Source of the DNA: Myxococcota bacterium
Lineage (GTDB): Bacteria; Myxococcota_A; SURF-8; G963663525
DNA length: 64,000 nucleotides
NCBI GenBank assembly: GCA_963676915.2
Contig: CAXXVK010000019.1
Location: 26,433 to 90,432, forward strand
Reading direction: 5' to 3'
Each line of letters opens with the position of its first letter. Positions within the stretch are counted from its first letter, which is position 1. Below, piece after piece: positions 56,354 through 57,568 of the stretch. The notes under the pieces were generated by a model, which was given only the letters and a program-made list of their open reading frames with translations, did no database searches and was not told the origin of the DNA. The position numbers were made by a program, and so were the translations under genes.

Positions 56354-56379
56354 GTAGGTCGGGTGAAATCACCCGACCT
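56354..56379. repeat. GTAG-type REP-like palindrome interrupted by the IS110 insertion
   Basis: GTAGGTCGGGTGAAATCACCCGACCT plus AC (57553-57554) rebuilds a perfect palindrome with 13-bp arms. Confidence 0.85.
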
Positions 56380-56428
56380 TGTATGATCTTTATTGTGTCA
56401 GTTTTCAGGTGTTTGTTGTGGTAAAATG

Positions 56429-56602
56429 GTGATGCTCCCTGGGCGGCCGCCCAGGGAGCATCGGGCGGCGAGATCGTCCCGACCTTGGGTTTTTCAACCC
56501 GTGTGTAGCTGGATCCGCCGCCCGTTTTGTCCGGGAAGCCCGAACAGTCGCTAGGGCCATTGTACACCGATGAGCCCGCATGAGCAAGGAAGGGTGAACG
56601 AG
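56429..56602 (+). ncRNA. Bridge RNA (5' hairpin, target-binding loop, donor-binding loop); ends approximate
   Basis: Hairpin 56431-56462; stem GGGCGGCG/CGCCGCCC enclosing TCCCGACCT and TGTGTAG; ACAGTCGCT (56544-56552) and GCAAG (56584-56588) match the donor junction. Confidence 0.85.
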
Positions 56603-57535
56603 ATGGAAACCGTCGGAATCGACATCAGCAAGCTTTCGTTCGATCTGGCCGTAGGTTCGTCCCGAACCGTCGAGACTTTTGAGTACACCCCAGCAGGAAT
56701 GAAAAAAGCGTTTCGTAAAATCAGCAACGCCGCGCCAGATCTGGTCGCCATGGAATCCACCGGTGGCTACGAAAACCGCCTGGCCCAGTTCCTGCAAAAA
56801 CGGAATTTCAATGTGGCCGTCGTCAATCCACGACGTATTCGCGCCTTCGCTCAGTCTCTTGGACTTTTAGCGAAAACCGATCGCATCGACGCCAACCTCA
56901 TCGCTCGCTACGCCGCACTGGTCCAGCCCCGTCACATGCGAAAAATCACTCCCGAGAGTCTGAAACTCAAAGCCCTTGCGGCTCGCCGAAGGCAACTGAT
57001 CGATATGCGAACAGCAGAGAAAAACCGTATGGAACACGCCGACGACAAGCTTGTCGCACGCAGTCTGAAAACGATCATCAAAGCACTGGACAAGAACGTC
57101 GAAAGCATCGAGGAGGCGATACGGAGCATCGTTCAACGCAACGAATCGCTCTCCGAAAAGGTTCGATGCCTCATGACCGTTCCCGGTATCGGTTCGCTCA
57201 CGGCTCACTGCCTGATCGTTGATTTGCCCGAACTGGGTGAATACAACCGGCGCCAAATCGCCGCTCTCGTCGGCGTCGCTCCGTTCAATCGAGATAGCGG
57301 CACGTTCAAAGGCAAACGCATGACCGGTGGTGGAAGAAGGCAAGTGCGCACCCAACTGTACATGCCCACTTTGTCCGCCATCCAGCACAACCCTGTGATT
57401 CGAGCCTTCAATCAAAGGCACGTCACTATGGGTAAACCCAAAATGACCACCGTCATCGCATCTATGCGGAAACTCCTCGTTATCATGAATACTATGCTTA
57501 AAAATAGGGAGGAGTGGAAACCAAAATTTGCTTGA
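56603..57535 (+). CDS. IS110 family DEDD recombinase/transposase
   Basis: [62 protein letters not shown]. Confidence 0.97.
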
Positions 57536-57568
57536 CTTCAATCACAGTCGCTACATCGATTTTCGTTA

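Follow-up and report, generated by a model that had tools for sequence, protein, structure and literature searches.

The DNA analysed here (the window) is a stretch of 64,000 nucleotides from the genome assembly of a Myxococcota bacterium (GCA_963676915.2; contig CAXXVK010000019.1, positions 26,433 to 90,432 of the forward strand). At window positions 56378-57552 it carries an insertion sequence (IS) of the IS110 group, 1175 bp long and made up of three parts: a left end, a recombinase gene and a right end. A first-pass annotation, made from the letters of the window, had described this interval as a complete bridge-RNA recombination system of the IS621 type, with guides for a target site and for the donor site formed by its own ends. 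The analysis described below supports that description in its main lines. The interval is very probably an intact IS621-like insertion sequence of the IS110 group, and near-identical copies in the same genome suggest recent activity. The parts of the element and its borders are as follows.

56356-56379, plus strand: hairpin resembling a repetitive extragenic palindrome (REP) and bearing the target; arms 56356-56365 and 56370-56379, loop AAAT
56371-56377, plus strand: left target ACCCGAC at the 3' foot of the REP-like hairpin, followed by the CT core at 56378-56379
56380-56602, plus strand: non-coding left end, 223 nt beyond the core, beginning with TGTATGATC, the right-donor half-site
56382-56387, plus strand: TATGAT, the -10 half of the putative junction promoter
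56431-56462, plus strand: 5' stem-loop of the bridge RNA, a 32-nt palindrome with a 14-bp perfect stem
56462-56524, plus strand: target-binding loop module, recognized from fold, alignment and compensatory changes
56477-56485, plus strand: left target guide TCCCGACCT, in the top-strand sense of the target; effective part CCCGAC plus CT
56502-56508, plus strand: right target guide TGTGTAG (reverse complement CTACACA); with C56509 the range is 56502-56509
56539-56594, plus strand: donor-binding loop module
56544-56552, plus strand: left donor guide ACAGTCGCT, the same letters as the right end of the element
56580-56589, plus strand: probable right donor guide AUGAGCAAG plus G56589, a discontiguous complement of CTTGTAT
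56603-57535, plus strand: recombinase gene, encoding a 310-aa protein with RuvC-like DEDD and Tnp domains
57532-57537, plus strand: TTGACT, the -35 half of the putative junction promoter, overlapping the TGA stop codon (57533-57535)
57536-57552, plus strand: short right end, with the left donor half-site ACAGTCG (57544-57550) and the CT core (57551-57552)
57553-57555, plus strand: right target bases; AC in all six genomic copies, third base A in three of the six

The left end (225 nt) is non-coding and the right end extends 17 nt past the stop codon. CT stands at both borders in every one of the six copies, and the window copy is flanked as ACCCGAC/CT...CT/ACAT. The boundaries given by the first-pass annotation thus recur in all copies, but the interval 56378-57552 includes the CT core twice, so that the net insertion is 1173 bp.

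A search of the host assembly (74 contigs, 5.18 Mb) recovers six full copies of the element, 99.6-100% identical and with the same two boundaries in each. Element positions 1-225, the whole left end, are invariant among them. The differences are confined to the gene and consist of four substitutions, a +1 insertion in one copy (C72) and a +2 insertion in another (C22). Total divergence is at most 0.43%, and together with the invariant left end this argues for recent spread. The left flanks of the six copies are CACCCGAC, TACCCGAC, AGCCCGAC (twice), TGCCCGAC and AAACGGAC, and the right flanks all start with AC (ACAT, ACCC, ACCT, ACGG, ACAG and ACAT). Five insertions therefore read CCCGAC/CT..CT/AC, the target predicted from the window alone, and the remaining one reads ACGGAC/CT..CT/AC.

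The sole long frame of the open reading frame listing spans 56570-57535. Since relatives and solved homologues align from the methionine at 56603, the protein is taken to be 310 aa long. It matches Pfam families PF01548 (DEDD_Tnp_IS110, E = 1.1e-25) and PF02371 (Transposase_20, E = 2.8e-18), and it passes the NCBIfam model NF033542, 'IS110 family RNA-guided transposase', with 220.7 bits against a cut-off of 140. The best match of solved structure is the ISCro4 transposase (PDB 9t56, E = 7.1e-36), and the solved IS621 protein is also matched (E = 4.1e-30), both over residues 3-301. The composite active site described for IS621 consists of D11, E60, D102, D105, S241 and G242 (PMC11208158). In the alignment, where the IS621 chain numbering is offset by 2, these residues stand opposite D7, E51, D93, D96 and S232-G233 of the window protein, so that every catalytic residue is conserved. 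No close relative of the protein was found, the best identity being 52% in species-representative genomes and 59% in metagenome contigs; the recombinases of the relatives discussed below are 38-59% identical to it. With its nearest protein only 59% identical, this is a distinct element by usual IS naming practice.

The left end has the potential to form a strongly structured RNA. The fold of 56420-56610 has an energy of -90.3 kcal/mol (z = -4.42), and none of 200 shuffled sequences folds as well. The 5' stem-loop is a perfect 32-nt palindrome (56431-56462), which also appears as a 32-nt reverse self-match of 100%, and it is followed in the minimum-free-energy fold by a stem formed by GGGCGGCG (56463-56470) and CGCCGCCC (56516-56523). 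This stem belongs to the target module, which has an outer stem (56462-56470 with 56516-56524), a second stem (56473-56475 with 56512-56514) and an inner hairpin (56486-56501); all nine pairs of the outer stem show compensatory changes among relatives. The donor module has an outer stem of CCC (56539-56541) with GGG (56592-56594) and an inner stem of 56554-56560 with 56570-56577. The palindrome, the stem, TCCCGACCT, TGTGTAG, ACAGTCGCT, GCAAG and the flanks had all been correctly located by the first-pass annotation. The Shine-Dalgarno-like AAGGAAGGG (56586-56594) doubles as part of the right donor guide and as part of the closing stem of the donor module, an arrangement kept in relatives.

The regions upstream of the relatives' recombinase genes align with the left end of the window element, and in this alignment the scaffold is constant and the loop segments vary. 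A covariance model (R1), with a 27-pair structure written on an alignment of eight sequences, was searched in 44 sources, namely the window and 43 of 61 relative loci; 18 loci were omitted, in which the protein match starts at or near the locus edge or covers the C-terminal part only. The model gives 37 matches, of which one is the window's own (56459-56594) and the other 36 come from relatives, one being cut off; all lie upstream of the gene on the recombinase strand, and seven sources have no match. Over 34 distinct rows, 93.8% of the cells are paired, versus 72.6% in shuffles, and compensatory changes on both sides occur in 20 of the 27 pairs. The covariation score is 0.495, versus 0.139 in shuffles (none of 500 reaches the observed value) and at most 0.065 with slid partners. 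The covariance-model check proposed with the first-pass annotation therefore recovers the RNA where it was expected, with stems that covary.

The position of this RNA also bears on the branch of the family to which the element belongs. The IS1111 group shares the same two Pfam domains and is placed with the IS110 group in one IS110 family, and its elements are described as having long subterminal inverted repeats and a long right end that contains the guide RNA (seekRNA), downstream of the gene (PMC11208160). The window element shows the opposite layout: the left end is 225 nt, the right end is only 17 nt after the stop codon, the RNA model matches upstream of the gene only, and no subterminal inverted repeats of 7-17 bp are seen at the ends by eye. 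Membership of the IS1111/seekRNA branch is, on this evidence, extremely improbable.

If the varying loop segments are guides, they should follow the flanks and ends of each element. Each relative's right boundary was placed where its left donor guide matched best, in a stretch of about 270 nt that takes in the gene end and the sequence beyond. Rows without a findable boundary (contig end reached or motif absent) were dropped, so that the 36 full-length RNAs gave 22 rows for the left target, 26 for the right target and 5 for the donor. The left target guide agrees with the seven left-flank bases at an average of 4.82 positions (permuted mean 3.01, reached in 0 of 5000 permutations; 22 distinct pairs). 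The reverse complement of the right target guide agrees with 3.58 of the five right-flank bases (permuted mean 1.67, 0 of 5000; 26 distinct pairs), and in nine of the 26 pairs the agreement is complete, with sequences as different as TTAAT, ACTTA, TCGAT, CCGCC, CTTCA and TGTTA. Five donor classes occur among the relatives (ACAGTCG, ACGGTTG, ATGGTTG, ACAGTTG and ATAGTCA), and the left donor guide tracks each exactly, matching the right end at 7 of 7 positions in all five (permuted mean 5.23; 40 of 5000 permutations reach this). The copies, the covariance model and this covariation of guides with flanks and ends together bear out the IS621-type layout.

A simpler account would make the left end a cis-regulatory 5' leader only, acting for example in translational control, and would explain its matches to flanks and ends by coincidence or as a consequence of the terminal repeats. 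It is true that AAGGAAGGG, the 3' strand of the donor module, resembles a ribosome-binding site of the recombinase, so that folding could affect translation, and that the integrated copy has no promoter-like site of its own (see below). However, a leader would not need loops that vary between elements in step with their own flanks and ends, on a scaffold that does not change, nor a left donor guide that follows five donor classes exactly. We therefore consider the leader account highly improbable, and read the loops as guides of a bridge RNA.

For the window element, CCCGACCT and GUAG match five of the six insertion sites of its own copies. The first-pass annotation had counted eight matches in nine for the left target guide. 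The match is real, but in this subgroup the first guide base (mostly T) hardly ever agrees with the target, which explains the earlier count and leaves CCCGAC plus CT as the working guide. The right target guide was likewise correctly read as far as CT-AC, but beyond it the guide is unmatched at most natural sites; in elements whose right guide starts with CTAC, the window's included, the natural flank is matched at AC only. On the donor side, ACAGTCGCT occurs four times in the window against 0.27 expected, and the left donor guide and the right end agree at 9 of 9 positions. The other two occurrences (31679 and 36028, both on the minus strand) lack any IS context and were set aside as chance matches. 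GCAAG (56584-56588), previously proposed as the right donor guide, is part of that guide, but the whole is probably the discontiguous AU..G.CAAG (56580-56588), a pairing read by eye. A contiguous form, AUACAAG, is present in one relative (L017), and a discontiguous donor pairing of nine bases on seven has been described for bridge RNA (PMC11208160).

Two further loop positions may contribute to site recognition. They are the bases that come next after the two right guides. Across the relatives, the one in the target loop can pair with donor position 7 in every one of 31 rows (30 C:G; the remaining row has U:A, with A in the donor), and the one in the donor loop can pair with target position 7 in all but one of 26 rows (25 G:C and one mismatch). 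Such 'handshake' guides are a published concept for IS621 (PMC11208158). In the window, C56509 is likely to be one handshake base, which would pair with donor G57550, and G56589 is likely to be the other, opposite target C56377.

Joining the right end to the left end in silico creates a sigma-70-like promoter, TTGACT-17-TATGAT, with 10 of 12 consensus matches; the integrated context scores 7 of 12. A scan of the integrated copy finds no promoter-like (sigma-70-like) site, and a terminator scan finds one terminator-like site, in the gene on the minus strand, versus 2.0 expected. In the relatives, 25 of 26 distinct junctions score at least 9 of 12 and 25 of 26 have a 17-nt spacer, whereas the integrated left contexts reach at least 9 of 12 in only 5 of 25 cases. 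A promoter rebuilt at the circle junction is also described for IS621 (PMC11208160, PMC11208158). An extended -10 element was considered and rejected, since the bases ahead of TATGAT are TTG and the TG is one position off. The TGA stop codon sits inside the -35 hexamer of the junction promoter (57532-57537), and this overlap is kept in relatives.

These features suggest the following cycle. Excision would join the right end to the left end and thereby form both the donor site ACAGTCG-CT-TGTAT and the promoter TTGACT-17-TATGAT. From this junction promoter a bridge RNA of about 200 nt would be transcribed from the left end, with a 5' stem-loop, a target-binding loop and a donor-binding loop, and the 310-aa DEDD/Ser recombinase would bind it. 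In the donor loop, ACAGUCGCU and AU..G.CAAG would hold the circle junction. Strand exchange at the CT core would then place the element in CCCGAC-CT-AC, where a hairpin of the abundant REP-like kind has its 3' foot. We infer the transcription, RNA-binding and chemical steps of this cycle from published IS621 work.

Assembled contigs of public runs were also compared. In the run that contains 98% of the words, the contigs break at 56371-56372 and at 57554-57558, that is, at the element ends plus the shared target bases, and several different flanks continue from these breaks, as expected for a multi-copy element. In run X1 the word depth is 28 for the IS contig and 3.3-3.6 for the flanks, a hint of several copies, although depth is not copy number. 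A run from another study contains a contig of a diverged relative that joins 56349 to 57571 with five other letters between, and with neither hairpin nor element there. The same run contains a variant of the element that is about 95% identical, with 57 differences in 1121 nt; two of the changes (56503 G>A and 56504 T>C) affect distal bases of the right target guide, which are among its unmatched positions.

Several points weigh against reading the window element as an intact and recently active bridge-RNA system. The alignment used for the pair counts was fitted to the proposed structure and its sequences are related, so that significance is inflated, and the permutation tests ignore the relatedness of the elements, with the same effect. 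In relatives, a sequence criterion, the conserved core-plus-TGTAT motif, and not an experiment defined the left boundary. An Rfam 15 scan of 56200-57800 (E up to 10) found no family at threshold. No right-end-to-left-end junction was seen in the contigs of four runs, although contigs cannot show rare forms. The C53 insertion has two mismatches in the six non-core guide positions and lies outside any hairpin. Finally, the recombinase gene has frameshifting insertions in two of the six copies (+1 A in C72 and +2 G in C22). These lie at positions equivalent to window 57307 and 57328, in short same-base runs, and may reflect real decay or assembly errors.

Taken at face value, the last of these points would suggest a real IS110-group element whose lineage has become immobile or is decaying, so that its copies are relics and its guide matches historical. 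A truncated copy (on C58), a 56-nt left-end relic (on C60), two recombinase-less bridge-RNA-like relics and the absence of the circle junction from contigs all fit such a history. Against it, four of the six copies retain intact reading frames with 99.0-100% protein identity, all catalytic residues are intact, and the identical left ends and low divergence of the copies point to recent spread. An immobile lineage is therefore very improbable, and an intact, recently active element remains the better reading.

The rearranged forms just mentioned have some features of their own. On contig C58 (1-471; L007), 345 nt from the right-hand side of the element (positions 831-1175, 99.1% identical) come after an apparently uninterrupted target, CCCGAC-CT-ACTTG, and the same nine bases (CTACTTGCT) stand on either side of this fragment. 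It is not a simple insertion product, and may have arisen by aberrant recombination or through a join made in assembly. On contig C60 (183797-183852; L008), a solo left-end relic of 56 nt (element positions 2-57, 94.6% identical) adjoins a REP-like hairpin and ends where the 5' stem-loop would start. The two bridge-RNA-like loci lie on the minus strand at C27:18619-18743 (L083) and C22:28594-28723 (L084), with R1 scores of 56 and 26 bits. Their loop sequences differ from the window's, one neighbours an acyltransferase gene and the other a DHH/DHHA1 gene, and a tblastn search with the recombinase found no match in either locus. They are probably relics of other IS110-group elements. A different structure is seen in runs X2 and X3 (another study), where a loose end past window 56388 reads ..CCCGAC-CT-TGTATGATC, then a second CTTGTATGATC, then CTAC. 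The target looks empty except for this tandem duplication of the core and the nine left-end bases next to it, which could be the footprint of abortive or half-site recombination; half-match recombination is the subject of a 2026 preprint.

The target itself belongs to a large repeat family. The empty target CCCGACCTAC, a 10-mer, has 133 uninterrupted occurrences in the genome, versus about 11 expected from base composition. At 118 of these 133 sites, GTCGGG lies at most 22 nt before, which places the site at the foot of a GTCGGG..CCCGAC hairpin, so that the element lands in the genome's REP-like repeat family with many sites still free. The family (GTCGGG, 6-12 nt, CCCGAC) has 336 genomic copies, often paired; CT comes next in 149 of them and CTAC in 118. 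IS621 targets REP as well, and insertion into repetitive palindromes is thus common to the two elements. The window hairpin is symmetrical, and its minus strand presents another target, free of any insertion (CCCGACCTAC, the reverse of 56354-56363).

The match between guides and natural sites spans only 10 bp (CCCGAC-CT-AC), and five of the six insertions are at the 3' foot of one hairpin family. These two facts raise the possibility that the hairpin structure is co-recognized. An A follows CTAC at three of the six insertions versus 13 of the 133 free sites. We regard it as a speculative and rather doubtful proposal that the target is read by more than base-pairing, with the hairpin co-recognized and the distal right-guide bases perhaps biasing the choice among more than 100 free sites. 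If the proposal were true, the 310-aa enzyme, with its near-identical and apparently recently spread copies, would represent a compact and orthogonal bridge recombinase whose natural target logic combines sequence with structure.

Among known systems, the element is closest to IS621 of Escherichia coli. The recombinases are homologous over their full length and share the catalytic D-E-D-D-S residues. The published description of IS621 also includes a long left end that encodes the RNA, in which a 5' stem-loop precedes two guide loops in internal-loop modules, a CT core, left guides in the top-strand sense and right guides complementary, and the junction-rebuilt promoter, which here is an in silico result (PMC11208160, PMC11208158). 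The RNAs are compared here at the level of this published architecture. The differences are the length of the protein (310 aa versus a solved chain of 328 residues), the target CCCGAC-CT-AC and the unused first position of the left guide. When all complete E. coli genomes were searched with the element for distant DNA similarity, no match was obtained. The likeness to the ISCro4 transposase (PDB 9t56) is at the protein level only. ISPpu9 and ISPpu10 of Pseudomonas putida are likened here by description only, as IS110-family elements reported to have copies in repetitive extragenic palindromes or in one conserved intergenic sequence (PMC12288879; bioRxiv 10.64898/2026.03.19.712850).

The nearest likenesses at the RNA level are unnamed IS110-group elements from environmental and metagenome sequences (L028, L017/L023, L015, L016-L019, L020 and others), which have the same RNA scaffold with loops carrying different guides. 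Most share the donor ACAGTCG-CT-TGTAT, the commonest class among the relatives, and the targets of L028 and L017 are near-identical to the window's (TCCGAC-CT-AC). The suggestion in the first-pass annotation that the specificity may be new is weakened by these parallels. The kind of system is also known: the mechanism, published in 2024, and the RNA architecture are in print, thousands of RNA-target and RNA-donor pairs had already been analysed in that year (PMC11208160), and an NCBI model names such proteins RNA-guided. The element or its guides may already be present in the orthologue tables that supplement the bridge-RNA papers.

The window element is thus a well-documented addition to a known kind. 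It provides one cleanly delimited natural bridge-recombinase system, whose enzyme is compact (310 aa) and whose guides can be read, and is a candidate orthologue for tool development; the known mechanism is unchanged. Its native host, with six insertion sites and 133 uninterrupted target 10-mers, offers material for comparing guide rules such as the unused first guide position, the short effective right guide and the handshake bases. For annotation, the element explains a repeat that breaks the assembly, and the REP-like hairpin family can be described as its landing pad.

The Rfam scan described above gave two sub-threshold matches only, a microRNA model on the palindrome and RF02234 (sX15), a small RNA of Xanthomonadaceae, on the minus strand. 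sX15 is the only family with a full-length sub-threshold match over both guide modules; the match covers window 56453-56599 with 30.2 bits, below the gathering score of 55 that would mark membership. sX15 also matches the guide modules of one relative (L051), again on the strand opposite the bridge RNA and below threshold (33.6 bits). Conversely, at the sX15 type locus on plasmid pXCV183 (L076 1879-2037; NC_007507 116378-116536), R1 scores 36.3 bits (E = 4e-10) within the sX15 coordinates, on the strand opposite to sX15. After this match come an ATG and a protein start of the form GIGIDV..K, as is usual in IS110 recombinases of this kind, and then unrelated sequence; a Pfam search with the short hypothetical protein beside the locus gave no match. 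A literature search returned no link between sX15 and bridge RNAs among the matches listed. From these sequence matches, sX15 appears to correspond to the strand antisense to an IS110 bridge RNA. A 2011 Xanthomonas paper reports northern-blot detection of both sX15 and an antisense partner, asX7, and given the R1 match on the strand opposite sX15, asX7 may be the transcript of a bridge-RNA remnant.

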